Below, one piece after another: positions 11,300 through 41,048 of a stretch of DNA of 41,613 nucleotides. The DNA comes from Patescibacteria group bacterium (GTDB lineage Bacteria > Patescibacteriota > Minisyncoccia > UBA6257 > GWB1-50-10): contig JBBTYZ010000015.1 of the NCBI GenBank assembly GCA_038061595.1, positions 1 to 41,613 on the forward strand. Direction: 5' to 3'. The translations under genes and the position numbers were made by a program. Below the pieces are notes generated by a model. The model made no database searches. It had not been told where the DNA came from and saw only the letters and a list, made by a program, of their open reading frames with translations. How positions within the stretch are numbered: the first letter of the stretch is position 1; each line of letters opens with the position of its first letter.

Positions 11300-12522
11300 G
11301 ATGTCTTTGCCATTCTAAGTATATTTTCTATTTTATTCAAACAAACCTCTTTGGTGAAATTATTTAACACATAATTAAAGGCGTTTTTGCCGTATGCATT
11401 TAACTTTTCTTTTTCAAGAAACATCTTCTCTGTTAGCTCCAACATTTTTTGTTCGTCATCGGATCTGCCCGCCAAACCGCACTTTGCATCTTGAACTATC
11501 TTTACCCCATCACTCCTTTCGTGCAGAAATGCGAGGACTGGAAGCCCCGCTGCCATATAGCCCATCAGTTTTGCGGGAACTGCAGGCGTGGTATTTGCAC
11601 TTGTGAGCGACAAGATACCCACATCTGCGTCTTTAAGCATCCACGGATAATCCTCCTTAGAAACGAGTGGCTTGAAGACAACATTTGTTAGTTTCTTGCT
11701 CTCCGCAAGTTCTACAAGTTTCTTTTTCTCCGAACCTTCACCCACAAAAAGGAAGACAATTTCTTTATATTTTTTTAGCTTTTCGGCAATACGAATAAAC
11801 ATATCCAAACCTTGCGAAGGGCCCAAGACTCCTCCAAAAACGAATATAAATTTATTTTCCAATCCATATAGCTTTCTGAACTTACCAGTCCGCTCGGCTT
11901 CATCAAACGGCTTTATATCTATCCAATGCGGAACAACATGCATCTTTTGAAGCGAAACTCCCCGCTCTTTATTGGCGAATGTTTTGTGAGCTTCAGATGG
12001 CGTTACTATTATGTCCGAGTTTTTATAAGCACGCTCTTCCATTCTTCTAAAAAAGCGTATTAGGAATTTGTTCTTTAAGACACCCAAATCTATAGCGTTC
12101 TGCGGGAAAAAGTCCTGAAGGTTTAAAACATATTTCGCTCCATAATCCCTTTTCACAAGTTCCGCAGTAATTGTGAGAGGCAACGGCGGACTATGAACCC
12201 AAACAAAATCAATGTTCCCCTTAATATGCTTTTGTATATGGCGAAAGAATATATAAGGAAGCGTGACTTGCGAAATTCCCTTCATAACAAAGCCGACATT
12301 GTGATGAGGCAATACATTAGCCCGAATAACCGTTATGCCGTCCTCCTTAGAAACACCAGCAGAAACATTGGTGCCCACTGCCACATTATGCTCGGAAGGA
12401 CGCGAGGTCATAACAAAAACTTCGTGCCCATGCTCCTTAAAGCCGTCCGCCATTTCCTTCATCAAATGAGATGAAGAACGGGTCTCTGGCGGATATGAGT
12501 CTGTAACTATTAATATGCGCAT
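11296..12522 (-). CDS. GT4 glycosyltransferase (WcaI/WbuB-like)
   Basis: 408 aa. MRILIVTDSYPPE...GHEV at the N-terminus and a C-terminal PAKLMGYMAAGLPVLA motif are typical of the WcaI/WbuB subgroup. It has an ATGA overlap with wecB. Confidence 0.8.
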   Translation of the reverse strand: MRILIVTDSYPPETRSSSHLMKEMADGFKEHGHEVFVMTSRPSEHNVAVGTNVSAGVSKEDGITVIRANVLPHHNVGFVMKGISQVTLPYIFFRHIQKHIKGNIDFVWVHSPPLPLTITAELVKRDYGAKYVLNLQDFFPQNAIDLGVLKNKFLIRFFRRMEERAYKNSDIIVTPSEAHKTFANKERGVSLQKMHVVPHWIDIKPFDEAERTGKFRKLYGLENKFIFVFGGVLGPSQGLDMFIRIAEKLKKYKEIVFLFVGEGSEKKKLVELAESKKLTNVVFKPLVSKEDYPWMLKDADVGILSLTSANTTPAVPAKLMGYMAAGLPVLAFLHERSDGVKIVQDAKCGLAGRSDDEQKMLELTEKMFLEKEKLNAYGKNAFNYVLNNFTKEVCLNKIENILRMAKTS

Positions 12523-16009: not shown

Positions 16010-16597
16010 TTAAAATTCCTTCTCGACTTCCTCACAAATGACGTGCAACACCATTGTGTGAACCTCCTGAATCCGCGGAGTGTTTCTGGAAGGCACGACG
16101 ATTGATATGTCTGCGACGCCCCTCAAGGCCCCTCCATCGTTACCAAGCAGGCAGACGGTTTTAATGCTCATTTCTTTCGCCTTCTTTACTGCCTCAATTA
16201 TATTCTTTGAATTACCACTCGTGGAAATGCCGAAGAAAACATCTCCAGAAACCCCCAGCGCTTCTACTTCTCTTGCGAAAAGAGAATTGAAATCATAGTC
16301 GTTACTCCAGGCAGTCAGAGCAGATGTATCGGTTGTGAGCGCTATCGCCGGATGCCCCTTTCTTTCTCGTTTATATTTACAGACAAATTCTGCAGCGAAA
16401 TGCTGGGCATCCGCTGCCGAACCACCATTCCCCGCAACAAGAATCTTGTTCTTGTTTTTGAAACAATCTTTCACCAAAGAAACTGATTCGTGGACACTTT
16501 TTAAAAAATTGGCGTCATGCAAAAGAGCCGTACGCAAGGCCATAGACTCATTTATGTGGTCATTTATATAAGAATAATCACTGCCCATAACCATCAT
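16010..16597 (-). CDS. gmhA: D-sedoheptulose-7-phosphate isomerase (SIS domain)
   Basis: 195 aa with GNGGSAADAQHFAAEF, ISTSGNS and the conserved QE.H segment (RIQEVHTMVLH). Confidence 0.88.
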   Translation of the reverse strand: MMVMGSDYSYINDHINESMALRTALLHDANFLKSVHESVSLVKDCFKNKNKILVAGNGGSAADAQHFAAEFVCKYKRERKGHPAIALTTDTSALTAWSNDYDFNSLFAREVEALGVSGDVFFGISTSGNSKNIIEAVKKAKEMSIKTVCLLGNDGGALRGVADISIVVPSRNTPRIQEVHTMVLHVICEEVEKEF

Positions 16598-21091: not shown

Positions 21092-22027
21092 TTATGGTTT
21101 TTGTTTAAGATCTCGTTCTATGCGGGCCGCAATCTTTTTCGCCGTAAGCCCACACAATCCTATCAAATATTCCCGTGAGCCGGTAACGTGCAAAAACTTA
21201 TCTGCCGTACCCATTCTCACAACCCGATACGACAACCCGCGATCCGCGACTAATTCGGAGATAGCCGATCCTAAACCGCCTATCATGCTATGCTCTTCAA
21301 GAACATAAACGATTTTTTTGTTTTTGAATAAATTTAAAACCTTGCGGACATTAAGCGGTTTTACGGTGGGCAATGATATTAACGCTGCATCTATTTTTTT
21401 ATTTTTAAGCTCGTCTGCCAATTCTCTTGCCAAAAACAACATACTTCCGGTTGAAATAATTGTAGCCATATTGCCGCGTTTTATAAAAATCGGCTCGCCA
21501 ATTCTAAGCTTGGGCTTTTTTAAATGAATAAATTCGTCTGGTCCGCTATTTGTACGCCCAATTCTTATATAAGCTGGGCCTTTAAAAGAACAAGCGAGCT
21601 TGGTAACCTGTTCCGCCTCATAGAGATCCCCCGGACATAACACCGTCATATTTGGCAAGGATCTCATCGCCGCAACATCCTCCAATGCAAAATGGCTTAC
21701 TCCGTACTGGCTTAGCGTAAATCCAGAAGAGGTGCCAACAAGCTTAACGTTCAAATTATTAGACGCGATATCAAGCCTAACCTGCTCAAAGCACCGCAAT
21801 GTTACAAAGGCCGCTTGCGCGTAAAAAAATACTGTGTATCCGTTCATTGCGAGACCCGCCGAAATACCAGCGGCATTCGCTTCCGAAACTCCAGCATTAA
21901 TGAATCTATCCGGGAATTTGTCGCGCAACCCTTCAAAAGTTCCATAGCCCATGTCGGCCGTAACAACGATTATGCTTTTATCTTTCCACATCATCTCCAT
22001 TAAAGTTTTGACAAAAGTCCCTCTCAT
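21092..22027 (-). CDS. Transketolase, C-terminal (pyrimidine-binding + C-terminal domain) subunit of a split transketolase
   Basis: 311 aa with DMGYGT...FINAGVSEANAAGISAGLA..G...F and a later HSMIGGLGSA. It is separated by 1 nt from the N-terminal subunit gene. Confidence 0.85.
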   Translation of the reverse strand: MRGTFVKTLMEMMWKDKSIIVVTADMGYGTFEGLRDKFPDRFINAGVSEANAAGISAGLAMNGYTVFFYAQAAFVTLRCFEQVRLDIASNNLNVKLVGTSSGFTLSQYGVSHFALEDVAAMRSLPNMTVLCPGDLYEAEQVTKLACSFKGPAYIRIGRTNSGPDEFIHLKKPKLRIGEPIFIKRGNMATIISTGSMLFLARELADELKNKKIDAALISLPTVKPLNVRKVLNLFKNKKIVYVLEEHSMIGGLGSAISELVADRGLSYRVVRMGTADKFLHVTGSREYLIGLCGLTAKKIAARIERDLKQKP

Positions 22028-22028
22028 G

Positions 22029-22850
22029 TTATTTAGATAGTTCTTTTAAAGCTGCTTTTAGATCCGACTCGTTTGGGTATTTATAGTGCCATTCAATCCT
22101 GTCTTCCAGAAAAGAAACCCCCTTTCCTTTTATGGTATGGGCAATTATCGCGGTTGGTTTGTTTTTTTTGAGCGGTATTCGCGCAAATGCTTTTTCTAAA
22201 GAAGTGAAATTATTCCCATCCGCCTCAATCGCCTCCCAGCCAAAAGCTAGAAATTTGTCGGGGACCGGGTCTATATTCAAAACCTCTTTTGTTCTGCCAA
22301 AAGATTGCCATTTATTGTAATCCACGATAGCTATCAAATTATCCAAATTATTATGGCCGGCAAACAGTATTGCTTCCCAGGTTGAACCCTCGTCCAATTC
22401 CCCGTCGCTTATAACCACAAAAACACGGTGCTTGCTTTTCATTTTTTTTCCCGCAAGGGCCATACCGGTACCAACCGGAAGTCCGTGTCCCATCGATCCG
22501 GTAGTCGCCTCTATTCCCGGGACTCCGCTCATGGTTGTTATGCCAACGAATTTACTGCCATTCACACAATAGGTATCCAATTTATTTTTGCTGAAAAATC
22601 CCCTGTCGGCTAAAACGGCATAAAGCGCAGAAGCGCCCCACCCCTTACTCAAAATAAATCTGTCTCGCGTTTTGTTTTTAGGATCTTTTGGGTCTATTTT
22701 TAAAATAAAATTATACAAATAAATCAAAATATCCAGCACGGAATAGGCCGAACCCAAGTGCGATGCCCTTGCCTTAAATATCATCTCTATTATCCGCTTC
22801 CTTAGCTCCTTGCCCTTCTTTTTTAAAAGATTGATCTCTTCTTTTTTCAT
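22029..22850 (-). CDS. Transketolase, N-terminal (ThDP/PP-binding) subunit
   Basis: 273 aa with ASHLGSAYSVLDIL, GSMGHGLPVGTGMALAG and VISDGELDEGSTWEA...NNLDNLIAIVDYNK. In the last string the usual GDG of the ThDP motif reads SDG. Confidence 0.85.
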   Translation of the reverse strand: MKKEEINLLKKKGKELRKRIIEMIFKARASHLGSAYSVLDILIYLYNFILKIDPKDPKNKTRDRFILSKGWGASALYAVLADRGFFSKNKLDTYCVNGSKFVGITTMSGVPGIEATTGSMGHGLPVGTGMALAGKKMKSKHRVFVVISDGELDEGSTWEAILFAGHNNLDNLIAIVDYNKWQSFGRTKEVLNIDPVPDKFLAFGWEAIEADGNNFTSLEKAFARIPLKKNKPTAIIAHTIKGKGVSFLEDRIEWHYKYPNESDLKAALKELSK

Positions 22851-23785
22851 TATTTTAGAGACTGTTTCTTCACCCAGTTTATGAATTTTGTAAGTCCGTC
22901 ATCTAGAGAATTTTTTGGGGACCAGTCAAGGATTTTTTTCGCTAGAGATATGTCGGCAACCCACATCTTCGGCTCATGTTGTTTCGCCGCAAGGTTCCCA
23001 TATATAACCCGGATCTTTTTACCCAAAATTTTTTCAACCGCACTTACCGCCCCAGAGATTGAATGTTGCTTTCCGGAAGCGATATTAAAAATCCTTCCCT
23101 TAATATTATCAGCGTTATCGATTGCCCTCAAATAAACGTCTATAACATCTTCAATAAACACAAAATCTCTTACGAATGACGGTGAGGGGGCACTGAATTT
23201 TTCATCTTTAAGCCCGGCCGCAACAATATTCGGCATTAGCCGGCCGCTCCCCTCAAAATATCCGTACGGTGAAAAAAGCCTCATGGTCGCTACGGATAAT
23301 CCCGTTTTTCTGGATAACGATTCACAATACAAGGTACCGGCGGCCTTGCTTACGCCGTAGAGATTGTTCGGTTCCAATAGATCTTTTTCAGATATTGGGT
23401 GATTTTTTTCTCCATATTCGGAGCTGCTACCGGTGTTTATAAAACACTTAAAACCTGTTTCTGCGCACGCATTCAATAGATTTATCGTCCCCAAAGCATT
23501 GGTTAAAATTGTCGTTTTCACATCCATCTCTTTCCCCGAATAAGCGCCATAAGCAGCGAAATGCAAGATAATTTCCGGCCTTAAGCCGTTTACAAACTTG
23601 CTCGTCGCCTGCTCGTCTATAAGATCGACCGGATGCAAATGAACTCTATTTTTTATCGGTTCAATACGTTTAAAATTGGAATCCCCTCGGACTAGCAAAT
23701 GAATTTCGTGCCCTAATTCCAAAAATTTATACACAAAATTAGCCCCTACAAAACCCGTACCTCCGGTTATTAGTATTTTTTTCAT
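22850..23785 (-). CDS. Extended SDR, NAD-dependent epimerase/dehydratase/reductase
   Basis: 311 aa with ILITGGTGFVGANF, GSSSEYG and YGVSK (YxxxK). Its stop overlaps the tkt-N start by 1 nt. Confidence 0.8.
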   Translation of the reverse strand: MKKILITGGTGFVGANFVYKFLELGHEIHLLVRGDSNFKRIEPIKNRVHLHPVDLIDEQATSKFVNGLRPEIILHFAAYGAYSGKEMDVKTTILTNALGTINLLNACAETGFKCFINTGSSSEYGEKNHPISEKDLLEPNNLYGVSKAAGTLYCESLSRKTGLSVATMRLFSPYGYFEGSGRLMPNIVAAGLKDEKFSAPSPSFVRDFVFIEDVIDVYLRAIDNADNIKGRIFNIASGKQHSISGAVSAVEKILGKKIRVIYGNLAAKQHEPKMWVADISLAKKILDWSPKNSLDDGLTKFINWVKKQSLK

Positions 23786-29685: not shown

Positions 29686-30438
29686 TTAGACTAACGGCAA
29701 ATTGCTCACTCCCTCCAAGTTCTTATCAAAATCATTCCGTGCTTTCTCATAACTTTCGGGTGTTCCAATATCGATGAAGTAATTCTTAAACACAAAACCA
29801 TAAACTTTCGCATCTCTAATGTGTTTTTCGAAAAAATCTTTCTCTATCGAAAATGTTTCAGGCAAATCAAAATTGTTCAAAACGCCCTTTCCGAATATAT
29901 ACATCCCGCCGCTAATTAGTCCTGGGCCGCCCCTTCCTGTTTTCTCTTTAAAATTCATTATCCTATTATTCTCATCTACGGTCACAGTTCCAAAATTTCG
30001 AGTATCATCCATTTGGCTTAGACAGATAGAGACGTGAGCACCGTGCTTAATGTGTTGTTTTAAGAAGTGATCGTAATTGATAGGGAAGAACGTGTCGCCG
30101 TTCAAGACGAGCACCATCTCATGCGAGGAATTATTAATAGCCTTCTTAATTGCTCCTCCTGTACCCAAAGGACTTTCTTCTTCTGAAAAACTTATCGTTG
30201 TACCTTTCGGAAACGATCGTCCTTTCATATGTTCGCGCATTTTGTCTTTCATATGGCCAACAGAAAGCATTATGTCCCGAAAGCCACATTGCAAAAGATT
30301 ATCAATCGTGTAATCCAATAGAGTTTTATTTTTTATCGGGGCTAAGACCTTGGGCCTATCAGCAATAACCGTCTGCAAACGAGTTCCAAGGCCGCCGGCA
30401 AGGATAATAACGCGTATATTTTTAAGTTCGGTGTTCAT
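29686..30438 (-). CDS. hddC: Sugar-1-phosphate nucleotidyltransferase, best fit D-glycero-alpha-D-manno-heptose-1-phosphate guanylyltransferase
   Basis: 250 aa with VIILAGGLGTRL...DRPK.LAPI, PLGTGGAI and NGDT. Its short single-domain size and its position next to the HddA-like kinase fit HddC/WcbM. Confidence 0.7.
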   Translation of the reverse strand: MNTELKNIRVIILAGGLGTRLQTVIADRPKVLAPIKNKTLLDYTIDNLLQCGFRDIMLSVGHMKDKMREHMKGRSFPKGTTISFSEEESPLGTGGAIKKAINNSSHEMVLVLNGDTFFPINYDHFLKQHIKHGAHVSICLSQMDDTRNFGTVTVDENNRIMNFKEKTGRGGPGLISGGMYIFGKGVLNNFDLPETFSIEKDFFEKHIRDAKVYGFVFKNYFIDIGTPESYEKARNDFDKNLEGVSNLPLV

Positions 30439-30449
30439 TGATTGAAAAA

Positions 30450-31439
30450 CTATTTTGTTTGATAAATTATATGGCTACCCTCATCTTCAAAAGCAAATGG
30501 GACGTGGAGCAATTTAGAAAGCGCCGTTTTAACTCTTTCCTGGTCTTTCGGCCGAGCATATACCAACAGGAATCCGCCCCCACCGGCGCCCAAGAGCTTG
30601 CCACCCAAGGCTCCCGCCTCCCTGGCCCGTGCATAAAAGCCGTCAATAGTATCGTTTGATATTTTTGGTGAAAGACTCCTTTTTAACTCCCAGCTTTTAT
30701 GGAGAAGTCTACCAAAATCCCCCAGCCAATCGCCATTGCTCTTAAGCACAAGAACAGCCTCATCTACCATGTTATGCATTGCCTGTAATTCAATTTTTTT
30801 ATTAGGGATGTTTTTAATCTGTTCGGTTGCAATCTCCGAAGCATTCCTAGAAAAACCAGTGAAGAAAAGCATCATATGTTTTTGTAACTCCTCAAGCCTC
30901 CCATCGCTTAACTTTATTGGCGTGACAGCGAAGCTACCATCTTTATGGAAGTTAATCTTATTAAATCCGCCATATGCAACAGCAACTTGATCTTGCGACC
31001 CAACGTTTTCTTTGATGCAATTCTGCTCAATATGAATCGCTTCCTCTGCTAATTTCTTTCTATCAGGACTGATTCCTTTGAGTCCATAAAGTGCGTGCAA
31101 AAAACCAACAGTAAAAGACGAGCTTGAACCCATACCCGATCTAGCCGGCACATCTCCGTTATAGTGGATAGACAACCCATCATTAAAATCCATAAAACGG
31201 AGGGTCTCCCGAACTGACGGATGCGCGATTTCATCAATACTATTAACCTCCTCCATTCGAGACCAAGCCACCCTGGTTTTATAAGGAAAATATGGGGGAA
31301 GACGTATCGCGTGCAAATACGAATATTTGTTAATTGAGGTGCTAAGTACTGCCCCGCCATATTCTTTGACCCACCCCGGATAATCTGTCCCACCCCCAAA
31401 AAACGATATGCGCAGTGGTGTTTTTGTAATAACCATCAT
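30450..31439 (-). CDS. hddA: GHMP sugar kinase, best fit D-glycero-alpha-D-manno-heptose-7-phosphate kinase
   Basis: 329 aa with TKTPLRISFFGGGTDYP, GMGSSSSF (GHMP motif II) and LLGAGGGGFLL (motif III). This is the HddA/WcbL-like layout. Confidence 0.72.
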   Translation of the reverse strand: MMVITKTPLRISFFGGGTDYPGWVKEYGGAVLSTSINKYSYLHAIRLPPYFPYKTRVAWSRMEEVNSIDEIAHPSVRETLRFMDFNDGLSIHYNGDVPARSGMGSSSSFTVGFLHALYGLKGISPDRKKLAEEAIHIEQNCIKENVGSQDQVAVAYGGFNKINFHKDGSFAVTPIKLSDGRLEELQKHMMLFFTGFSRNASEIATEQIKNIPNKKIELQAMHNMVDEAVLVLKSNGDWLGDFGRLLHKSWELKRSLSPKISNDTIDGFYARAREAGALGGKLLGAGGGGFLLVYARPKDQERVKTALSKLLHVPFAFEDEGSHIIYQTK

Positions 31440-31444
31440 AATAA

Positions 31445-32311
31445 TTAGCTGTTAAATATATTGACCAACTTTTCGATAATATCATCAATATTGTTCTTCG
31501 GAAACCATTTCAAAAGTTTTTGAGATTCGGAAAAATTGGACGTGAGAGTAAAAGCCTGTGTTGTAGAGGGCGTAAAAACAACCTTGCTCTCAAGCCTGCT
31601 TGCCACCTTTGTGGCTAAATCACGCATCGAAATACGGTTAGAAGAAAGGAAAAATGGATAATAACCCGGCTCCGCAACGGTGCCATATTCAACCGCCTTA
31701 AGTATCCCCTCGGCCACATCATCTATCCAAATCCACTCTCTTTCGTGACGACCCTCACCATAAATTTCTATATCCTTGTGAGCAAGTGCGGTTTTTATAA
31801 ATTCAATCGGAGCGTGGGGAAGATATGTATTCTTGCCCAAAACCATAGTTGGTCGAACCGTTACGATTTTCATTTCTGGAGCTTCCTTAATAAACTGCAT
31901 CATAGAAAATTCGGCAGAGGCCTTGCTCGCACTATACCCGTGTTTTGGACTAAAATTAGAAAATTGAGTTTGGTGTTCGCCGATCTTGTTTTCTCCATGA
32001 ACAGTCATGGAGCTTGTGAAGATATAATTTTTCACACCCGCCTCATGGGCAGCTTTTAAGACTTTTAAATTCCCCATTACGTTTGTCTCAAAAAGATCTT
32101 GAATTCCCGGCGCTTCTTTCATGGTTCCCAAGATTGCAGCTAAATTAATTACCACGTCTGGCTTCTCAATCCCTAAACCGCGCGTGAATGTCTCCGTATT
32201 TCGGACATCTTCTTTGGTCAAATCGAATATCACAACATCGTGCGTTCCTTTCGCTTTCTCTTGGAGCGCCTTACCTATAAAACCCTGTCCACCAAAAATT
32301 ACTATTTTCAT
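31445..32311 (-). CDS. Extended SDR (NDP-sugar reductase/epimerase)
   Basis: 288 aa with IVIFGGQGFIG, TSSMTVHG and YSASK (YxxxK). It has a 4-nt ATGA overlap with the upstream gene. Confidence 0.75.
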   Translation of the reverse strand: MKIVIFGGQGFIGKALQEKAKGTHDVVIFDLTKEDVRNTETFTRGLGIEKPDVVINLAAILGTMKEAPGIQDLFETNVMGNLKVLKAAHEAGVKNYIFTSSMTVHGENKIGEHQTQFSNFSPKHGYSASKASAEFSMMQFIKEAPEMKIVTVRPTMVLGKNTYLPHAPIEFIKTALAHKDIEIYGEGRHEREWIWIDDVAEGILKAVEYGTVAEPGYYPFFLSSNRISMRDLATKVASRLESKVVFTPSTTQAFTLTSNFSESQKLLKWFPKNNIDDIIEKLVNIFNS

Positions 32312-33558
32312 GTTTGAAACTTACCACGACCAATAGATGAGTAACGGACGCCGAGTTGTTTAACGTCTTCTTTCCTGAACATATTGGCTGCGTCTATGAT
32401 TATCTTATTTTTCATAGAAGAAATTAATTTTTTATATGGCGCTTCTTTGAATTCTTTTTTACCTACAGCTATAACTACCGCATCTGCGCTGGAAAAGACA
32501 TCACCAATTGAGTTTACTGTATATGCGTTATTCTCGACCAGGGGATCATAGAGCACCACTTCTGCCCCCTTTTTCTCTAGGCGTTTCATAAGAGGGGCGA
32601 CCAAGGACCCTCTCATATTTGAAGTAAATGGTTTATACGTTGCTCCTAAAAAGCCCAACTTTTTACCCTTCACGTTTTTGAAATATTTACCAATCTCTTT
32701 TTCCATGAATTTATTATGTTCGTTATTCACCGCAATGATCTGCTGCAACATTGGCAACTTAATCTTAATTTTCTTGCCTAAATTTATTAACACTTTAAAA
32801 TCTCTTTCTACGGTTCCGGCAAAGCCCAAACCCGGTAAAGTATAGGCCTTGGGCCCAACTCGTTTGTCAGACCGCAAAATCTGTCCGATATTTTCAAAAT
32901 TAACATTGAAATACTCACTAAATTTGGTAAGTTCTGAGACAAAACTCACCGTCATAGCTACGAAAATATTTGCTGCGTGTTTGGACATTTCCGCTTCTTC
33001 TAAGGTGACGCTGAATTTGGGAGAATTTATTTTATCAAAGAGACGTAAGACGCCTTTCACCACCCCTCCGTCTCCTCCTAACACAATATAATCTGGCTCA
33101 ACAAAACGCTTGAGCGCATCTCCAAATCTCAAAAATTCTGGGAAATAAATAATTTCTATTTTTTTATATTTCTTCTGCCAAATTCTCATTGTGCCTATGG
33201 GGGTTTGAGAAGAAACTACCACCACCCTAAATAGACCACTCTCCACAACTTTTCTGAAGTGCCCCCCTATGTCATTCATATCAACACCGGTGGGAATTAT
33301 ATTTACATCTTGTGCAAAAAAACAAATATCCGCTTTATTATTTGGATCGGCAATATTATTAGAGAAAAAGAGCTTGTTGCTCTCTTTAAATTTTTTTATT
33401 CCATCGGTAATTCCTGGTTCAAAAACCGGCGGCTTACCCATTTCATAATCTTCGTAAGCCTCATTACCCGCAACTAATCGCACTGTGTGACCCAACTCAC
33501 AAAGACCTATCGCATACACTTCAGCCAAGTGCCATGAGCCATAGACGGTTATCTTCAT
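32308..33558 (-). CDS. UDP-glucose/GDP-mannose dehydrogenase-family homolog with degenerate cofactor and catalytic motifs
   Basis: 416 aa with the three-domain layout of nucleotide-sugar dehydrogenases (PEFLRFGDA, AEMSKHAANIFVAMTVSF, GATYKPFTSNMRGS). The N-terminal GxGxxG reads GSWHLA, and the GFGG(S/Y)C.PKD catalytic-Cys motif reads GFAGTVERD. Confidence 0.65.
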   Translation of the reverse strand: MKITVYGSWHLAEVYAIGLCELGHTVRLVAGNEAYEDYEMGKPPVFEPGITDGIKKFKESNKLFFSNNIADPNNKADICFFAQDVNIIPTGVDMNDIGGHFRKVVESGLFRVVVVSSQTPIGTMRIWQKKYKKIEIIYFPEFLRFGDALKRFVEPDYIVLGGDGGVVKGVLRLFDKINSPKFSVTLEEAEMSKHAANIFVAMTVSFVSELTKFSEYFNVNFENIGQILRSDKRVGPKAYTLPGLGFAGTVERDFKVLINLGKKIKIKLPMLQQIIAVNNEHNKFMEKEIGKYFKNVKGKKLGFLGATYKPFTSNMRGSLVAPLMKRLEKKGAEVVLYDPLVENNAYTVNSIGDVFSSADAVVIAVGKKEFKEAPYKKLISSMKNKIIIDAANMFRKEDVKQLGVRYSSIGRGKFQT

Positions 33559-34490
33559 ATATTTGAGAATTGATTACGCTTAATTATTCGATAACCTTTT
33601 ATAAGCTCAGAGATTGCGCCCTGAATAGATACCTGTGGCTTGAAACCACTTTTTTCAATCTTTTCGTTAGAAATAATATAATTTCTTTTATCTGGGTCTT
33701 TGCCAAATTCCGATTCTATAAAAACGAAGTCTGGGACTTGTTTCTTTATTTCGGCACAAAGCTCCCTCTTGCTTAAGTTTGCATCAGAGAGACCAACATT
33801 ATAAGAATTGTTTTTCATCTTTTCAAAATTATTCATCACATGCATAAAAGCGCGCGCCACATCTCGAACATGAATATAATTTCTTTTGAAATCGGCCTCA
33901 AAAAGAACGACAAATCTATCATTCACCGCTCTGTAGACAAAATCGTTCACGAGAAGATCTAAGCGCATCCGGGGGCTAATTCCACAAACCGTTGCTAATC
34001 GAAGCGTTACCGCATTACCAGAAGCAAAAAGTTTCTTTTCGGCTTCCACTTTAAGCTGACCATACAAAGACACTGGGTTTAATGGCGATTCTTCAGTGCA
34101 AAATTCCGTACTTTTACCTATGCCATAACCACTATTAGTATTGGGGAAGATAATCTTCTGTTCCGGTTGTCGCGATGCGATTAACAACTCAATCGCCTCA
34201 AGATTAACGGTTCTTGCTGCGACCGGGTCTTTATCGCAAAGCGGGGCTCCCACAAGACAAGCAAGGGGAAATATAAACTCCTTACCTGCAATATGTTTTT
34301 CTAGCAAAGCCTTGTCCCTCGCATCACCCCGAACTATCATTAGGTTCGGTGAATTGCACACATCCAGAAGGGGGGCCTGGCCATAAATAAAACTATCCAG
34401 AACAGTAACTTCGTGCCCGGCACGCAAGAGCTCTGGAACAAGAATCGCACCAATGTATCCCGCACCACCCGTGACTAAGATTCTTGCCAT
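33555..34490 (-). CDS. Extended SDR, NAD-dependent epimerase/dehydratase family
   Basis: 311 aa with ILVTGGAGYIGA and YGQLK (YxxxK). It has a 4-nt overlap with the downstream gene. Confidence 0.78.
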   Translation of the reverse strand: MARILVTGGAGYIGAILVPELLRAGHEVTVLDSFIYGQAPLLDVCNSPNLMIVRGDARDKALLEKHIAGKEFIFPLACLVGAPLCDKDPVAARTVNLEAIELLIASRQPEQKIIFPNTNSGYGIGKSTEFCTEESPLNPVSLYGQLKVEAEKKLFASGNAVTLRLATVCGISPRMRLDLLVNDFVYRAVNDRFVVLFEADFKRNYIHVRDVARAFMHVMNNFEKMKNNSYNVGLSDANLSKRELCAEIKKQVPDFVFIESEFGKDPDKRNYIISNEKIEKSGFKPQVSIQGAISELIKGYRIIKRNQFSNI

Positions 34491-34491
34491 T

Positions 34492-35061
34492 TTACTCTAC
34501 ATACTTCCCCGCCTCATCGCGCGGAGAAAGGATTGGATTCTTGATAGGCCACTCGATATTAAACCTTGGATCATCATAGCGGTAACTTGATTGCCTCTTG
34601 GGATCATAATAATTTGACTGCAGATAATGAAATACAATATTGTCGCTCAAGGCCAGATGACCATTGCCAAACCTTGGGGGGACAAGCACTTGTAAATGGT
34701 TTTCCCCAGAAAGCGTGAAAGACTCCCATTTACCAAATTCTTTTGATGTTTCATCACAATTTACAACAACGAAATAAAATTCGCCCTGGTGACAAGAAAT
34801 AAGCTTCCAATTATCCGAGTCAGCGTGTAGGCCTCTAAGCACACCTTTTTTGGAAATGGAATAATCCTGAGTCACAAATTCCACCGGAATTCCAAGTTTC
34901 TGAAAATCAACTTTATTATAGGGTGATACATACTTACCCCGAAAATCCTCATGTACATCAGGTTTCAGGAGCAAAACACCATCCAATGTTGTCTTTTCTG
35001 CTTTAATCACAACCCTATAGTACCACGAGAAATAACCCAGTGACAAGGTTATGGAAAACAC
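34492..35061 (-). CDS. RmlC-like cupin, NDP-4-keto-sugar 3,5- (or 3-/5-) epimerase
   Basis: It has TTLDGVLLLKPDVHEDFRGKY, LRGLH and the ..FHYL..YYDP....YRYDDP pattern of dTDP-4-dehydrorhamnose 3,5-epimerase-like proteins. The listed start is GTG at 35061. Homology suggests the GTG at 35010 (VIKAEKTTLDGV) may be the real start. Confidence 0.8.
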   Translation of the reverse strand: MFSITLSLGYFSWYYRVVIKAEKTTLDGVLLLKPDVHEDFRGKYVSPYNKVDFQKLGIPVEFVTQDYSISKKGVLRGLHADSDNWKLISCHQGEFYFVVVNCDETSKEFGKWESFTLSGENHLQVLVPPRFGNGHLALSDNIVFHYLQSNYYDPKRQSSYRYDDPRFNIEWPIKNPILSPRDEAGKYVE

Positions 35062-35100: not shown

Positions 35101-35619
35101 TCAAATTAAATCCAGGACTTCTTCTGGACTCTGAACAATATGATCAGGCGAACAATTTGCGAGATATTTAGCCTTAAACTCATTTTTCACAAAAATCGTC
35201 TTGCATCCCACCGCCTGGCCAGCTAAAACATCCTTATCACCATCGCCAACCAATATTGACTGTGTGCAATCAATATTTAAATCTTGCGCCGCTTGTCGGA
35301 ACATCCCGGCCTTAGGTTTCCGGCAATCACAATTGTCTGCATCTACATGCGGGCAATGATACACGGCGTCTAACTCATGATCCAAAAGACGTTCCATCTC
35401 ATTATGGAGTTTATGCAATTCGACTTCAGAAAGTAACCCTTTCGAAATTTGGGGTTGATTCGTTACCACAACCACCTTGTAGCCGTGTTCTTTTGCGGCA
35501 TGGATTACACTTTTTATTCCCGGCATAAGCTCGAACCCGTCCTTGAGGAGACGATAACGCCCGAGTTCCGCACATATAACACCGTCGCGATCAAGGAAAA
35601 GCGCCTTACGCTTTTCCAT
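35101..35619 (-). CDS. gmhB: D,D-heptose 1,7-bisphosphate phosphatase (HAD-IIIA)
   Basis: It has ALFLDRDGVI (DxD nucleophile motif), VVVTNQPQISKG, the Zn-knuckle CPHVDADNCDCRKP and GDGDKD. The start was moved from the track's TTG at 35652 to the ATG at 35619, which overlaps the upstream gene by 14 nt. Confidence 0.82.
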   Translation of the reverse strand: MEKRKALFLDRDGVICAELGRYRLLKDGFELMPGIKSVIHAAKEHGYKVVVVTNQPQISKGLLSEVELHKLHNEMERLLDHELDAVYHCPHVDADNCDCRKPKAGMFRQAAQDLNIDCTQSILVGDGDKDVLAGQAVGCKTIFVKNEFKAKYLANCSPDHIVQSPEEVLDLI

Positions 35620-36652
35620 ATATTTTGTTGATATCCCTAAGATGAGCAGCAAAATATTCTTTGTGTCTCTTGATTATTACGTTCTCCGATTCCATCAACT
35701 TTTCCAAAAACTTCACTGGATCTTTTTCGGTTATAGCATTGATTTCCGCCCACACCTCATGTCCGTGCATATATCCTTCGATCTCTGTCAAAAAATCATT
35801 TTTATAGACATTACGAGCGCCCCACACCCCACGATCTTGTCGATTCACTGCATCACCAACATGGACATACATATCGTTGTTAAAAAGCACTTTCTGAAAT
35901 ACGAAAGAATGGAAAATATCATCCATCCGTTCCGCAAAAGGCCACATGAGCGCGAGTGGAAAGATAAATTTTGCATACACCGTATTCTGAGTGTTATACG
36001 GCGACCAAACATTTTTTAGGCAATAATTTTTTTCTCTGATTGACTCAAGGGGTAGACGCTTGGGGTAAACCAGACGGGTTCTAGCATCAATATCTGGGTC
36101 ACCTAGGGAAATTCCTTGAAAAAGACCAATCTCTTGAGGTTGAATAGCATCTTTTATTGCCCTAACCTCTGTAGCATCTTGCCACAAAAATGGCATGGGA
36201 AAACCACGTGGATACATTTCTATAGGGGCCGGAGCGGTCTTCAGATAGTTATGCCAGGGAGCAGGCACAACCTCTTTTGTAACTTCGACTACTTGATTTA
36301 CTGGTCTCGTAAGAACATTGTGCCAACTTTCAAAATAATCGGGGTCGGGAATGTTGTCATCATCAATAGTAAGAATAAAATCCGGATTAAGCTCTAAGGC
36401 ACGCAGAAATGCGGCGTTTCTTCGTCTCTGACTTTTCCAACCAATAAGACTGCTTATCTCAAAACGCTCTTGGTTTTTGGGTGATAAATACTCAATCTTA
36501 CATTTGAATTTCTTGTCATCAAATGGCTTTGAGGTTGTGTCTCCGGCAATAACAAATACAACCTCTGAAAATTTACTTTTTGCCGCCAATGAATCGTAAG
36601 GCAGGTATCCCTCCTCTCCGTTTATGGTTGTAGAAACAATTACTAATTTCAT
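35606..36652 (-). CDS. RGP/GT75-like protein (reversibly glycosylated polypeptide / UDP-arabinopyranose mutase-like fold)
   Basis: 348 aa, and by-eye alignment to plant RGP/UAM runs along the whole length. LVIVSTTIN matches IVIPTIRN and FILTIDDDN matches YIFTIDDDC (DxD). YPRGFPMPF matches VRGYPFS and includes the Arg corresponding to the reversibly glycosylated Arg. GISLGDPDIDARTRL matches GLWLNIPDYDAPTQL, and ERMDDIFHSF matches GRYDDMWAGW. Confidence 0.5.
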   Translation of the reverse strand: MKLVIVSTTINGEEGYLPYDSLAAKSKFSEVVFVIAGDTTSKPFDDKKFKCKIEYLSPKNQERFEISSLIGWKSQRRRNAAFLRALELNPDFILTIDDDNIPDPDYFESWHNVLTRPVNQVVEVTKEVVPAPWHNYLKTAPAPIEMYPRGFPMPFLWQDATEVRAIKDAIQPQEIGLFQGISLGDPDIDARTRLVYPKRLPLESIREKNYCLKNVWSPYNTQNTVYAKFIFPLALMWPFAERMDDIFHSFVFQKVLFNNDMYVHVGDAVNRQDRGVWGARNVYKNDFLTEIEGYMHGHEVWAEINAITEKDPVKFLEKLMESENVIIKRHKEYFAAHLRDINKIYGKA

Positions 36653-36671: not shown

Positions 36672-37628
36672 TTATATTCTTCCTTTTTCCTTCATGTCCG
36701 ATTCAATCCAATTATACAGTTCTTTTATTCCTTCTTGAAGAGAAACGCTTGGCTTCCAATTAGAATTGAACTCTTTCTCAACAACGTTCTCCGGGCCAAG
36801 TTTTCGTTCAATGCCCCTTGGCGCATCAAGTTTGTGCTTCCTATTAAACTTTATTCCGGCAGCAGCTTCAACCGCATCAACCAACTGATTTATAGTTACA
36901 AATTCCCCACTCCCGAGACGCACCGGTTCTGTAATCTCGCTTTCTGTTAATTTGCGTATTCCATCCACCGCGTCTCTCACAAACATAAAGCTTCTAACCT
37001 GCGTACCGTCTCCCCAAATTTCGAGATCAAGATTCCCGGAAGATTTAGCGATAACCGCCTTGCGACAGAGTGCGGCAGGAGCCCTCTCTCTACCACCCTC
37101 GTAGGCATCGTGTGGCCCATATATATTCTGGAGACGGCCAATCCTAGTAGGCAATCCGAAATCTTCACGAAAATATTTACAAAGTTTTTCGCTGAAAAGT
37201 TTTTCCCAAACATGGCCGTCCTCAATAACGTCTGTTAGGGCCTTGCCCTCTTGGGGGACTTCGGCCACAGAAACTGCATTTGAAGAAGAATAGAAATACC
37301 GTCCCACTTTTGCCGCTCGCGCAGCCATAAGAAGGTGGGTATTAATTAGAACAGAAAGCATGGTTAGGGCTTTCTGTTTCTCAATAAAGTTAACCCCGCC
37401 GATTTCAGCGGCCAAATTATATACCCCATCAACGCCCTCCATCGCCTTTTCACAACTCTCTTTAAGAGTGAGGTTTAAGGAGATGTTTTCCGCTTCCTTG
37501 TGGAGTTGTTTCCATTCGGAAAGTCCCCGCTTCCCAACAGCACGCACTCGAAAACCATCACTTAAAAGACTTCCTACTAAATGGCCACCAATAAGCCCGC
37601 TTCCGCCCGCAACTAATATTCTTTTCAT
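36672..37628 (-). CDS. GDP-mannose 3,5-epimerase (GME)-family extended SDR with non-canonical active site
   Basis: 318 aa with ILVAGGSGLIGGHL. The long strings IGRLQNIYGP, EGGRERAPAALCRKA and WGDGTQVRSF mirror plant/bacterial GME (IGRFHNIYGP, KGGREKAPAAFCRKA, WGDGLQTRSF). The YxxxK motif reads HVWEK (His139). Confidence 0.7.
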   Translation of the reverse strand: MKRILVAGGSGLIGGHLVGSLLSDGFRVRAVGKRGLSEWKQLHKEAENISLNLTLKESCEKAMEGVDGVYNLAAEIGGVNFIEKQKALTMLSVLINTHLLMAARAAKVGRYFYSSSNAVSVAEVPQEGKALTDVIEDGHVWEKLFSEKLCKYFREDFGLPTRIGRLQNIYGPHDAYEGGRERAPAALCRKAVIAKSSGNLDLEIWGDGTQVRSFMFVRDAVDGIRKLTESEITEPVRLGSGEFVTINQLVDAVEAAAGIKFNRKHKLDAPRGIERKLGPENVVEKEFNSNWKPSVSLQEGIKELYNWIESDMKEKGRI

Positions 37629-37657: not shown

Positions 37658-38935
37658 CTAAGTTTCGTAAATCTTAAATTCCGGCATGGGTACGATAAAT
37701 TTTCCGCCATTTTTAAAAAATTCTTTTTCACGTTCTCTGAATTCTGGAAGAAAATGCCAGGCTAAAACAAAGTAATAATCGGGTTTTTGACTCCGCGATT
37801 GTATCTCTGACACGACGGGAATTTTGGTACTCACTGTTATCTTGCCCCACTTCAATGAGTTTCTATCGGCAATCGCTTCGATCAATTCTGGTTTTAATCC
37901 GTAAAACTGCAGAGTCGTATTCCCTTTAGTAGACGCCGCATAGCCGTGAACCTTCTTACCACTAGCTATCTCTTGCTTTATGAAAGACACAACCCTCTCC
38001 TTTGTTTCAATGGTTCTTTTGGCAAATCTCTCATAAATATCTTTGTCGTCTAAACCGAGTGATTTTTCTTTTTCGCGTACCGCTAAAACTCTTTGCTTCG
38101 CACCATCATAAACACTCAAGTTCTTGCCCAATCCTTTTTTTCTGACATATATCCGAACACTGCCTTCATTAATGTGCTCCCTCATTTCTAAATCGAAAAC
38201 CTCAAGTCCGTGACGGGCGAGCAAGTTCTCAAGAGCCATCAATGAGTAGTATTCAAGGTGCTCATGACAAATGCCATCAACCGCGTTCTGCCCGAGGAAA
38301 GACGGCAGATACATCATTTGGATAACAAGAATCCCGTCATCATCTAAACACTTCACGATATCACTAACGAAAATATTAGGGTTATCCAGGTCATAAAACA
38401 TCGCAATCGCAGTAATGCTCTTGGCCTTGGCATTGCCAAACTCTTTCTCCCAAGAGTTGTGGTTAAAAAAATCAACTATTATTTTAGTAGTCCCCTTTTT
38501 GCCTTCTTCTTCTAGGTTTTTCGCTGGCTCAAAACCAACTGTTTTCAACCCAGGAATTTTATAACCACGTAGAAGCGTGCCATCATTTGCACCTATATCT
38601 ATAACCAAATCGCCACTTTTCAAACCGACAATTTCGGAAACCTTGTTTGCTATCCCATTTAACTCATCCGTCATCGTCTGGTTAATCCCTGACTTATACC
38701 AATAATTTCTATACATAACCTCTCCAGAAACGGTATGTCTGAGCTGAAGCAAACCGCAACCGCCATCTTTTTGATTGCACAAAACCAATTCTAAGGGCGC
38801 CTCAGTGCCCTGATATTCTTGCCCCGGATCCAAAAAATCCGAAACATATAGATTACCGAGTGAAAAAATCTGAGTCAGATTTTTAAAACCACAAGAGCGG
38901 CATGACTCAATAACACGAATCATTGGATTTGACAT
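37658..38935 (-). CDS. NDP-4-keto-sugar C-methyltransferase (TylCIII/EryBIII-type; Zn-finger + SAM MT + C-terminal MT_14 domain)
   Basis: 425 aa with an N-terminal 4-Cys module CRSCG...L.LVLCNQKDGGCGLLQL, SAM motif I VIDIGANDGTLL, and the C-terminal domain typical of sugar C3/C5 C-methyltransferases (HGYAASTKGNT...KWGK..P). Confidence 0.82.
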   Translation of the reverse strand: MSNPMIRVIESCRSCGFKNLTQIFSLGNLYVSDFLDPGQEYQGTEAPLELVLCNQKDGGCGLLQLRHTVSGEVMYRNYWYKSGINQTMTDELNGIANKVSEIVGLKSGDLVIDIGANDGTLLRGYKIPGLKTVGFEPAKNLEEEGKKGTTKIIVDFFNHNSWEKEFGNAKAKSITAIAMFYDLDNPNIFVSDIVKCLDDDGILVIQMMYLPSFLGQNAVDGICHEHLEYYSLMALENLLARHGLEVFDLEMREHINEGSVRIYVRKKGLGKNLSVYDGAKQRVLAVREKEKSLGLDDKDIYERFAKRTIETKERVVSFIKQEIASGKKVHGYAASTKGNTTLQFYGLKPELIEAIADRNSLKWGKITVSTKIPVVSEIQSRSQKPDYYFVLAWHFLPEFREREKEFFKNGGKFIVPMPEFKIYET

Positions 38936-38950
38936 AGCTTTAACAAATTA

Positions 38951-40009
38951 TCAATTCTGGAACTTACCGTCAACTCCGACAAGTTTTAGGTCGCTCTCTA
39001 ACATTAGCTTAACGAGCTCTTTAAATCTGACTTTGGGTTCCCACCCCAATATTTGTTTGGCCTTAGAATAATCCCCTTGCAAAACATCCACTTCGGCCGG
39101 ACGAAAATACATTGGATTTATCTTAAAAATCGTCTTGCCACTTTTTTTATCAATGCCTTTTTCGTTCACACCATGCCCGTCCCAAATCAAATCAATGCCC
39201 ACCAAACGACACGCCTCTTCAATAAATTCGCGAACCGAATGAGTTTCGTTCGTAGCCAACACATAATCGTCCGGTTTATCTTTCTGCACCATTAGCCACA
39301 TGCCATAGACATAATCCTTGGCATAACCCCAATCTCTTTTTGCGTCAATATTGCCGACATGAACGATGTCTAACTTTCCGGCAACAATATTAGCTAAACC
39401 CAACGTGATTTTCCGAGTAACAAAATTTTCGCCACGCCTTGGCGATTCATGATTGAAAAGAATGCCGTTCGAAACGTGCAGTCCATAACTCTCGCGATAA
39501 TTAACCGCTGCCCAATAAGCGTAAACCTTAGAAACTCCGTAAGGACTTCTCGGGTGGAAGGGAGTTGTCTCCTTCTGAGGCGTTTCTTTGACCAACCCAA
39601 ACATTTCAGAACTTGAAGCTTGGTAAAAACGCGTCTCGGAGTTATCGTGACGAATTGCCTCTAGAAGACGGGTTGTTGAGAGAGCAACAGCGTTGCCAGT
39701 AAATTCGGGAATATCAAAACTAATCCGAACATGGCTTTGAGCGCCGAGATGATATACCTCATCAGGCTTCAAATCACGAATGATCCGATGAAGAGAACCG
39801 GAGTCGGTTAGATCACCGTAGTGAAGGGTAATCAAATTCTTCTTGCCGTGCATATCGGGGAAAAGATGTTCGATTCGCTCGCGATTAAAAGTGCTCACAC
39901 GCCGTACTAAACCATGAACCTCATAGCCCTTCTGAAGCAAAAGCTCCGCTAAATAAGAACCGTCTTGACCGGTTATGCCAGTGATAAATGCTCTTTTTTG
40001 TTTTCCCAT
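38951..40009 (-). CDS. gmd: GDP-mannose 4,6-dehydratase
   Basis: 352 aa with [39 protein letters not shown] (T/S-S-E), [12 protein letters not shown] (YxxxK) and [17 protein letters not shown]. Confidence 0.92.
39950..39979. repeat. 30-nt stretch identical between the two gmd paralogs (second copy at 40986-41015)
   Basis: TAAATAAGAACCGTCTTGACCGGTTATGCC occurs at both positions on the plus strand and encodes [10 protein letters not shown] on the minus strand. A further shared 15-mer, CCATGAACCTCATAG, lies just upstream in both. Confidence 0.85.
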
Positions 40010-40064
40010 GACAGATATAGCTAATTATTGAATAGAACCTATAAAAAACAAGCAGGGTTTAATT

Positions 40065-41048
40065 TCAGACGTTTTTTAAATCAGACTCAACCATCATCTG
40101 CACCAAATCCTGAAAATTGGTTTTTGCCTTCCAGCGCAATGCGTTTTCAATTTTTTTCGGATTCGCAAGCCATTCTCTAGCCTCGCCTGGCCTAAAAAGA
40201 GATTCGTCTATGGAAACATAATCTTTGGAATCCAATCCAACAAATTTAAAAGCTGCCTCAACAAATTCACGAATGGTATGGCTCTTGCCCGTTCCAATCA
40301 CATAGTCATCGGGCTTATCCGCTTGAAGCATCAACCACATCGCCTCGACATAATCACCGGCAAATCCCCAATCTCGTCTCGCATCCAGATTGCCAAGACG
40401 AAGCGTTTTTTCTTTACCGGATTTAATACGGGCGACTGCAAGGCTAATTTTTCTCGTGACAAATTCAAAACCTCGACGAGGAGATTCGTGACTAAACGCG
40501 ATGCCAGAACAGGCGAACATGTAATGAGTGTCACGATAAAACTTAGTAAGATATAGTCCGGAAGCCTTGGAAACTCCGTAGGGTGTTGTCGGAGCAAATC
40601 GAGCCTGCTCGTCTTGAGGCGAATCACCTAAACCACTAAAGAGATCGCTCGTAGCAGCGAAGTAGAAACGAGATTTAGGACTAACATCTCGTAACGCAGA
40701 CAACAAATAGTGCGTACCCGATACGTTTGTAATCATTGTTCCAAGTTCATCATTAAAAGATTCTGTAATACTCGCAATCGCCGCCAAGTGATAGACCTCG
40801 TCAGGCCTCACCTTATTGATTAACTGCCAAACGGTTGCGTAATTTGTAATATCGCCTGAATGAAGAATTAGATTTTTGTTCTCAAGAAGATGGTTGATGC
40901 GCGAAAATCGGGCAGGGCCACTCTCGAGGGCGACGCGTCTTACCAAGCCATGAACCTCATAGTCTTTTTTAAGCAGAAGCTCGGTTAAATAAGAACCGTC
41001 TTGACCGGTTATGCCGGTTATTAAAGCTACCTTTCTTTTATTTTCCAT
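40065..41048 (-). CDS. GDP-mannose 4,6-dehydratase paralog (shorter; possible GDP-heptose-specific dehydratase/oxidase)
   Basis: 327 aa with [37 protein letters not shown] and SHESPRRGFEFVTRKIS. The catalytic T-S-E reads T-S-D (AATSDLFSG). This is the only gene here with a clear SD (GAGGTGA, 7 nt upstream of the ATG). Confidence 0.82.
   Translation of the reverse strand: MENKRKVALITGITGQDGSYLTELLLKKDYEVHGLVRRVALESGPARFSRINHLLENKNLILHSGDITNYATVWQLINKVRPDEVYHLAAIASITESFNDELGTMITNVSGTHYLLSALRDVSPKSRFYFAATSDLFSGLGDSPQDEQARFAPTTPYGVSKASGLYLTKFYRDTHYMFACSGIAFSHESPRRGFEFVTRKISLAVARIKSGKEKTLRLGNLDARRDWGFAGDYVEAMWLMLQADKPDDYVIGTGKSHTIREFVEAAFKFVGLDSKDYVSIDESLFRPGEAREWLANPKKIENALRWKAKTNFQDLVQMMVESDLKNV

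Follow-up and report, generated by a model that had tools for sequence, protein, structure and literature searches.

The gene at 36672-37628 on the minus strand of a 41,613-nucleotide contig from a Patescibacteria group bacterium (GenBank assembly GCA_038061595.1, contig JBBTYZ010000015.1; the whole stretch is called the window here) encodes an extended short-chain dehydrogenase/reductase (SDR) that descends from GDP-mannose 3,5-epimerase (GME). Three catalytic residues of GME, Tyr, Cys and Lys, are replaced in it by His, Ala and Arg, and the replacement marks a conserved clade, termed the HAR clade, whose members are paired with a putative GT75 pyranose-furanose mutase in a GDP-heptose operon. 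We propose that the HAR SDR is a GME trimmed to its last half-reaction, an NADPH-dependent GDP-4-keto-sugar C4-ketoreductase that feeds GT75, and we give this reading a probability of about one half.

Ancestry and active-site residues of the HAR SDR

The window SDR is an intact open reading frame (ORF) of 318 amino acids, assigned by Pfam to the NAD-dependent epimerase/dehydratase family. As found with HMMER, its top solved relative was Arabidopsis GME (2C59, E=2e-56), and the next families followed at about 1e-20. An AlphaFold2 model, computed with a 40-sequence clade alignment as input, reached a pLDDT of 91.9 and a pTM of 0.91, and its structural matches were GME first (TM 0.87) and then GDP-fucose synthase (GFS). 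The match to the GFS model NF047922 was only 103 bits against a cut-off of 500, and that to the heptose reductase MlghC (7ANH) was weak (E=1e-5). An earlier note, made by eye from the letters of the same DNA, had placed the protein in the GME family on three strings, which we located at residues 163 (IGRLQNIYGP), 178 (GGRERAPAALCRKA) and 205 (WGDGTQVRSF); the placement is in full agreement with the searches.

Both the pairwise HMMER alignment to 2C59 and a multiple alignment made with MAFFT, in which 65 canonical bacterial GMEs were included, put Ala118 (codon 37275-37277), His139 (37212-37214), Lys143 and Arg182 (37083-37085) in the columns of Cys145, Tyr174, Lys178 and Lys217, as the note had read the three substitutions. 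It had also seen no alternative YxxxK, and there is indeed none anywhere in the protein; the sole HxxxK starts at residue 139. A shifted by-eye alignment is ruled out by the concordance of the two programs together with the absence of YxxxK.

We divided the 120 best homologues into 55 HAR cluster representatives and 65 canonical bacterial GMEs, and fetched 17 HAR-clade loci (18 with the window) and, as a control, 89 canonical GME loci. The control loci came from a scan of genome contigs with the clade alignment, in which the matches listed were all canonical GMEs of at most 52% identity. HAR representatives share 55-80% identity with the query and are 309-327 amino acids long, apart from one 538-amino-acid fusion. 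Their five key columns read (S/T/A)-(A/G/S)-H-K-R, as against S-C-Y-K-K in the 65 canonical GMEs, which are about 50% identical to the query. The same two-way split was found in the 17 clade and 89 canonical loci, and GMEs of the Candidate Phyla Radiation (CPR) at merely 30-40% identity to the query are still fully canonical. No intermediate, with Tyr but without Cys/Lys or the converse, was found among the 106 loci and 120 proteins. The Cys of some clade members (SSTCAVA) falls in column 117, which is variable, and not in the catalytic column 118. The idea that the His/Ala/Arg variant might form a conserved clade was thus borne out.

The variant forms a single group in a maximum-likelihood tree (SH-aLRT 100), on a long stem of 0.71 substitutions per site. 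This group branches from within the canonical bacterial GMEs, and the canonical GMEs of CPR bacteria lie outside; the clade therefore had a single origin, from a genuine epimerase. Few members carry names, and those that do belong to Candidatus Jorgensenbacteria and Sungbacteria (CPR/Patescibacteria). The window genome measures 0.55 Mb and is 94% complete. Among 401 genomes of the host phylum no further close clade member was found, nine other matches being all canonical, and the clade is therefore sporadic in this sample. Mean column identity among the 55 members is 68%. A decaying pseudogene was considered and is ruled out by the intact ORF, the 55-member clade and the invariance of the replaced residues.

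We then mapped the residues with roles in Arabidopsis GME, taken from a review of the enzyme (PMC8787198), onto the 65 canonical and 55 HAR sequences. The glycine motif for cofactor binding (G8/G11/G14 in the window SDR) is kept in both groups. Within the catalytic triad, Ser143 is Ser or Thr in 52 HAR members and Ala in 3 (window Ser116), and Lys178 is retained in 55/55 (Lys143). So are Asn203, which binds the sugar (Asn168), and Arg243, which binds the diphosphate (Arg212). In contrast, Tyr174 of the triad is His in 55/55 (His139), and the acid/base pair for epimerisation is gone, Cys145 being Ala in 50, Gly in 3 and Ser in 2 (Ala118) and Lys217 being Arg in 55/55 (Arg182). Arg306, which acidifies Cys145 and is Arg in 65/65 canonical sequences, is Lys in 37 HAR members and otherwise Ala, Val, Ser and others (Lys276). 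Three further positions, with no role assigned, also differ throughout: His202 is Gln (Gln167), Gly209 is Asp or Glu (Asp174) and Gly305 is Arg (Arg275), each in 55/55. In the alignment the epimerisation apparatus is lost as a unit, and the residues for hydride transfer and GDP binding are retained. The earlier statement that only Lys143 and the glycine motif survive was too strong, since Ser116, Asn168 and Arg212 are kept as well.

Ahead of the catalytic helix, HAR members have a loop that falls 8-13 residues short of that in canonical GMEs. Between window residues 118 and 139 it measures 21 residues in 29 sequences and 16 in 25, compared with 29 residues in canonical GMEs, and the two length classes may correspond to two substrate subclasses.

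At the end of strand beta2 in SDRs, an acidic residue goes with a preference for NAD, and basic residues go with NADP(H). Asp58, the NAD ribose binder at this place, is Asp in 65/65 canonical sequences; in the HAR clade it is Gly in 54, followed by Arg or Lys in 55/55 (window Gly32-Lys33-Arg34). The clade consensus, AVGRR, is similar to GLVRR of the window's own NADP-dependent Gmd. The HAR cofactor site thus looks as if it had been switched from the bound-NAD+ type to the NADP(H) type. What the note had called an intact GxxGxxG NAD motif is correct for the glycines; the site around them now looks NADP-type.

Among the features that define the 3,5-epimerase family (GM35E), the window SDR has the extended-SDR fold with GME closest, and the equivalents of Asn203 and Arg243; it has neither the Tyr of the Ser-Tyr-Lys triad, nor the Cys145/Lys217 pair, nor Arg306, nor the NAD-type acidic residue of beta2. 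Because these four defining features are missing, we regard the protein, on the evidence of its residues, as a GME descendant and not a functional member of the GME family. The annotation of clade members as 'GDP-D-mannose 3,5-epimerase' or as generic epimerase/dehydratase is probably a misannotation.

The GT75 partner and the GDP-heptose operon

Nineteen nucleotides downstream of the window SDR lies a gene (35606..36652, minus strand) for a putative metal-dependent GDP-sugar pyranose-furanose mutase of family GT75, similar to MtdL and Hyg20. It matches MtdL (PDB 7XPR/7YUA) with E=1e-17 and retains the DDD motif, the catalytic Arg of PRGFP and the equivalents of Gln229 and Arg257/Asp260. Such a gene, of about 345 amino acids and unannotated, stands directly downstream of the HAR SDR in 16/16 informative loci, that is, those with any sequence downstream of the SDR, compared with 2/89 canonical GME loci (Fisher p ~1e-11, with the reservation that the loci share kinship and so are non-independent). 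The two genes often overlap or are a few bases apart. These results establish GT75 as the obligate partner of the HAR SDR.

MtdL and Hyg20 have been characterised as Mn-dependent mutases; from GDP-L-galactopyranose and GDP-L-fucopyranose they form the corresponding furanoses, and in the mechanism proposed for MtdL the C4-OH of the sugar is the nucleophile that closes the new ring (PMC9937993). We also found kin of the window GT75 that have no HAR SDR as neighbour and yet fall in the same tight clade, with 51-58% identity to it. In locus L111 (8012-10023) a canonical GME, with Cys, Tyr, Lys and the beta2 Asp, lies directly upstream of GT75 on the same strand. L110 has, along with GT75, a pair of canonical GMEs, one GFS-like protein and two genes for Gmd, and in L109 (9001-12362) GT75 is followed by a GFS-like SDR and Gmd. 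Judged by sequence, the neighbours of GT75 in these sister loci are enzymes that complete an L-galacto-configured GDP-sugar, and the HAR SDR fills the same slot. Sugars of this kind are the substrates known for bacterial GT75 mutases. The GFS-like protein of L109 lacks the Cys and His of the GFS epimerisation dyad (GTIYEY, TAEVIA).

Below GT75 in the window, all on the minus strand, follows a block of heptose genes that is conserved with the HAR SDR. It starts with a GmhB-like HAD-IIIA phosphatase (heptose 1,7-bisphosphate phosphatase; 35101..35652), whose longest ORF overlaps the end of GT75 and whose true start is probably internal. Next to it, an RmlC-like cupin (34492..35061) matches GDP-4-keto-heptose C3/C5-epimerases about equally to RmlC; it is a candidate for such an epimerase and would supply the epimerisation that the SDR lost. 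The third gene, SDR311 (33555..34490), is a close homologue of PDB 6VO6/6VO8 (E=1e-109), which we take to be Cj1427, the GDP-heptose C4-dehydrogenase, as the PDB title fits. With its YGQLK motif and beta2 Asp, SDR311 is a Cj1427-like, NAD-type candidate for this dehydrogenase (PMC10680097). The block is completed by a UGDH-like protein (32308..33558), by SDR288 (31445..32311), a canonical NAD-type extended SDR with a YSASK motif and Asp30 that could be the block's second reductase or epimerase, by an HddA-like GHMP kinase (30450..31439) and by an HddC-like nucleotidyltransferase (29686..30438). Of the SDRs in this block, the HAR SDR alone is NADP-type; both SDR311 and SDR288 retain the beta2 Asp and the canonical YxxxK. 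A GmhA-like SIS isomerase is encoded further away (16010..16597, minus strand), and the same domain is found fused to the N-terminus of a HAR SDR in a natural in-frame fusion (P0008, at 5522-7138 of L107), which is followed by a GT75 fragment.

In the GDP-heptose route established for Campylobacter, a C4-dehydrogenase or 4,6-dehydratase is followed by a cupin C3/C5-epimerase and an NADPH-dependent C4-reductase; serotypes HS:10 and HS:41 add a pyranose/furanose mutase, and the HS:10 product is 6-deoxy-beta-L-galacto-heptofuranose (PMC10680097). An RmlC-like gene was present in the window, L081/L082, L083, L084, L085, L104 and the contig of P0021, and a Cj1427-like gene in the window, L083, L084, L085, L097, L101 and L103. 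A 4-keto generator was found in every sufficiently long HAR locus.

The region upstream of the HAR SDR is a variable module, not conserved with it (37658..41048 in the window, minus strand). It comprises two Gmd paralogues (40065-41048 and 38951-40009) and a TylCIII-type C-methyltransferase (37658-38935), extra sources of GDP-4-keto sugars in the window genome; the order is gmd2-gmd1-C-methyltransferase-SDR, with gaps of 15-29 nucleotides. The note had correctly seen that the SDR stands directly downstream of the methyltransferase, the gap being 29 nucleotides. The co-occurrence it suggested, however, did not hold: a C-methyltransferase is near the HAR SDR in only 3/18 loci (window, L085 and L107, against 0/89 canonical loci), and the invariant partner is GT75. 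In other loci the upstream neighbour is a split transketolase (L081, L096, L104, L106), GmhA (L098) or a GT2 gene (P0021 contig).

Several further features of these loci were recorded. A NUDIX hydrolase gene (10936-11394) lies between SDR and GT75 in L083, where it runs over the stop codon of the SDR; genes of the NUDIX and inositol-monophosphatase families are met repeatedly in L081 and L083. The UGDH-like protein lacks GxGxxG and the catalytic Cys (VYGSWHLAEV and GFAGTVERD at the two sites), and is the second apparent 'dead-site' enzyme of the operon. It is conserved in the block, where it always abuts SDR288; its homologues in L081, L083, L085, L097 and L104 are 53-72% identical, and the gene often overlaps that of SDR288. 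In L085 (1934-4567, minus strand) an 877-amino-acid protein joins an extended SDR to a C-methyltransferase of the TylCIII type (PF08421/PF08484, weak matches), on the strand opposite to the HAR SDR, and in L107 the genes upstream of the GmhA-SDR fusion include one of C-methyltransferase type (PF08484) and one for a radical-SAM protein. The split transketolase (N and C subunits) occurs with DegT, SDR351 and SDR311b directly upstream of the HAR SDR in four loci. In the window the corresponding module (21092-22850) is 14 kb from the SDR, and modules appear to have been shuffled between lineages. SDR311b (window 22850-23785, minus strand) has an NADP-type beta2 end (LLVRGDS) and a canonical YGVSK, and probably serves the transketolase/3-dehydrase module as its reductase. 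Altogether the window genome encodes just eight extended SDRs, and all but an ordinary GalE lie in the window; three candidate ketoreductases stand against four 4-keto-forming enzymes.

Proposed reaction and alternative explanations

Our proposal is as follows. A Cj1427-like C4-dehydrogenase or a 4,6-dehydratase would act with the RmlC-like cupin to make a 3,5-epimerised GDP-4-keto intermediate, most likely GDP-4-keto-heptose or 6-deoxy-4-keto-heptose. To C4 of this substrate the HAR SDR would move a hydride from exchangeable NADPH, with Ser/Thr116-His139-Lys143 standing in for the Ser-Tyr-Lys triad and His139 as the presumed proton donor. If the facial selectivity of GME is kept, the product would be an L-galacto-configured GDP-sugar, and its new C4-OH would be the nucleophile for furanose ring closure by GT75. 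In the window genome the enzyme may also act on products of Gmd and the C-methyltransferase.

For the oxidation and for the epimerisation the block has a separate candidate enzyme each, which speaks for the HAR SDR as the C4-reductase. The NADP-type signature at beta2 suggests a preference for NADP(H), and the characterised heptose C4-reductases all use NADPH (PMC10680097). The link to heptose is supported by the GmhA-SDR fusion and by synteny with hddA, hddC and gmhB. Reduction as the direction of the reaction, the exact substrate, the stereochemistry and proton donation by His139 are inferences, whereas ancestry, the conserved residue changes, the beta2 signature, the GT75 pairing and the heptose-operon setting were observed.

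Several points weigh against the proposal. Among characterised sugar C4-reductases none is known to lack the catalytic Tyr, and MlghC, DdahC and Cj1428 all keep Ser-Tyr-Lys; HxxxK has been reported solely for a classical SDR of rice of undefined function (PMC8659612), our literature searches gave no SDR with a catalytic His, and those on CPR heptose glycans gave nothing relevant. SDR288 of the same block could be an alternative reductase. The Cj1427-like gene is absent from L081 and L104, which have a 4,6-dehydratase-type SDR351 module instead, and L101 is without an RmlC-like gene within its available sequence; because of these gaps in gene content, the exact substrate may differ between lineages. 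Finally, both the proposed reaction and the function of the clade are read from sequence, model and genomic context.

Other explanations were weighed against the same evidence. The absence of a Cj1427-like gene from L081/L082 and L104 would suit a HAR SDR that itself catalyses the first half-reaction of GME, as an NADP+-dependent GDP-heptose C4-dehydrogenase, or that acts as a GalE-like C4-epimerase with tightly held NADP+, similar to ADP-heptose 6-epimerase. His139 would then be the general base; His is able to serve as base or acid, and the hydride-transfer residues and glycine motif are conserved. We nevertheless consider this unlikely. Such an enzyme would duplicate the Cj1427-like one in the window, L083, L084, L085, L097, L101 and L103, the loci without that gene have the SDR351 module, and in sister loci the place beside GT75 belongs to enzymes for the end of a sugar pathway, not for its start. 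Thermodynamics, too, disfavours the oxidation of an alcohol by free NADP+, and for this reason Cj1427 depends on alpha-ketoglutarate (PMC10680097). Less likely again is that the HAR SDR works after or with the mutase, either by redox at exocyclic C5 or C6 of a GDP-heptofuranose, pulling an unfavourable equilibrium, or within a GT75 complex with chemistry undescribed for SDRs, which would account for the unusual His, Gln167, Asp174 and Arg275. The obligate and often translationally coupled pairing speaks for it, and the five invariant clade-specific changes in the active site, along with the shortened loop, suggest a reshaped pocket. A parallel would be Hyg26, an SDR of the hygromycin A pathway that reportedly oxidises C5 of fucofuranose. 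On the other hand, an ordinary GME or a GFS-like enzyme upstream of the mutase is enough in the sister GT75 loci, and the HAR SDR has kept those residues of GME that bind GDP or lie close to C4.

Loss of the canonical Tyr and of the acid/base pair also raises the question of whether the HAR SDR is an enzyme at all. It might be a pseudoenzyme, namely a GDP-sugar- or NADP-binding subunit, a chaperone or a regulator of the mutase, comparable to Tyr-less SDRs of the NmrA type; the note had considered a non-redox or scaffolding role. Atypical Tyr-less SDRs can be non-enzymatic (PMC8659612), and the same operon holds the UGDH-like protein as an apparent pseudo-dehydrogenase. But His139, Arg182, Gln167, Asp174 (or Glu) and Arg275 are invariant, Lys143, Ser/Thr116 and the glycine motif are conserved down to about 55% identity, and the change from Asp to Gly-Arg/Lys at the cofactor site is directed and not erosion. 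In NmrA-like proteins the loss of the Tyr goes with relaxed or absent catalytic and cofactor residues, which is not the pattern here; PglF and CapE, moreover, are active extended SDRs without it (PMC8659612). We therefore hold a non-catalytic role to be very unlikely. The least probable of the explanations is that of the earlier note, in which the conserved role is to reduce, or otherwise convert, a 3-C-methylated GDP-4-keto-6-deoxyhexose that Gmd and the TylCIII-type C-methyltransferase would produce. It agrees with the tightly spaced gene order of the window, with C-methyltransferase-type genes near the SDR also in L085 and L107, and with the need of the window genome for a reductase in that branch. 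Against it, 15/18 clade loci have no such gene nearby, the upstream neighbour varies, it is GT75 and the heptose genes that accompany the SDR consistently, and a fusion with GmhA exists. The note's general conclusion of altered chemistry was right; its tie to the C-methyltransferase was not supported, beyond a possible side role in the window genome in reducing a C-methylated 4-keto sugar.

If the C4-ketoreductase proposal is true, a multi-step enzyme that oxidises, epimerises twice and reduces would have been pared to a single half-reaction once others supplied the remaining steps, and this trimming, with a matching cofactor switch, would repeat on another scaffold the history of GFS in Campylobacter. 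Genes that automatic annotation names 'GDP-mannose 3,5-epimerase', or a generic epimerase/dehydratase, would receive a function, and together with GT75 they would outline how CPR/Patescibacteria may build furanose heptoses for surface glycans with no need of flavin mutases. With an invariant His where other SDRs have Tyr, the clade is a natural test case of what the Tyr is needed for. More tentatively, and with somewhat less confidence than in the proposal itself, the HAR clade could be the first natural extended SDR to use His-Lys for Tyr-Lys in hydride-coupled proton transfer, and with GT75 it would give CPR bacteria a route to GDP-L-galacto-type heptofuranoses that derives from GME and does not depend on flavin; in a radical version, the reshaped pocket (His139, Gln167, Asp174, Arg182, Arg275 and the short loop) would perform furanose or mutase-complex chemistry new to SDRs.

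Comparison with known systems

GME itself (2C59, and MfGM35E of Methylacidiphilum) is the closest system in sequence, with about 50% identity to bacterial GMEs, and in fold (TM 0.87). Since the HAR SDR keeps the glycine motif and the equivalents of Ser143, Lys178, Asn203 and Arg243, it is predicted to bind a GDP-sugar and nicotinamide. It differs by Tyr174His, Cys145Ala, Lys217Arg, a relaxed Arg306, Asp58Gly followed by Arg or Lys, and the shorter loop, and with these changes it is predicted to be incapable of the oxidise-epimerise-reduce cycle described for GME. That loss of the Tyr need not end catalysis is known from PglF and CapE, which have MxxxK (PMC8659612). These two are 4,6-dehydratases with Met at the Tyr position, however, and neither is a relative of GME or a C4-reductase. 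HxxxK occurs naturally in rice SDR7-6 (PMC8659612), a classical SDR of undefined activity that is likewise no GME relative. The Tyr-to-His change of the HAR SDR is without characterised precedent.

As functional analogues we propose the GDP-4-keto-heptose C4-reductases of Campylobacter jejuni, MlghC, DdahC and Cj1428. These are NADPH enzymes that arose from a combined epimerase/reductase and work with a separate cupin C3/C5-epimerase; DdahC and MlghC are homologues of GFS in which the Cys109/His179 dyad is replaced, by T/H in DdahC and Y/R in MlghC (PMC7949155, PMC10680097). In parallel, the HAR SDR has lost the dyad on a GME scaffold, with Cys to Ala and Lys to Arg, and has a separate cupin in its locus. 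It does not share their homology to GFS with an intact Ser-Tyr-Lys: the Campylobacter enzymes are GFS-derived and keep the triad, whereas the HAR SDR is GME-derived with His for Tyr, so that the homology is only at the superfamily level. The furanose-forming partners also differ, being FADH2-type mutases in Campylobacter and GT75 here.

With respect to this partner, the antibiotic pathways are closest, and that of A201A is said, in work of Zhu et al. from 2017, to employ a GME homologue. With MtdL (A201A) and Hyg20 (hygromycin A), a GDP-L-galacto pyranose is handed to a Mn-dependent GT75 (PMC9937993), and the same logic is seen in L111, L110 and L109. There, the supplier is a competent epimerase or epimerase/reductase that acts on a hexose, whereas in the HAR loci it is a stripped His-variant in a heptose operon.

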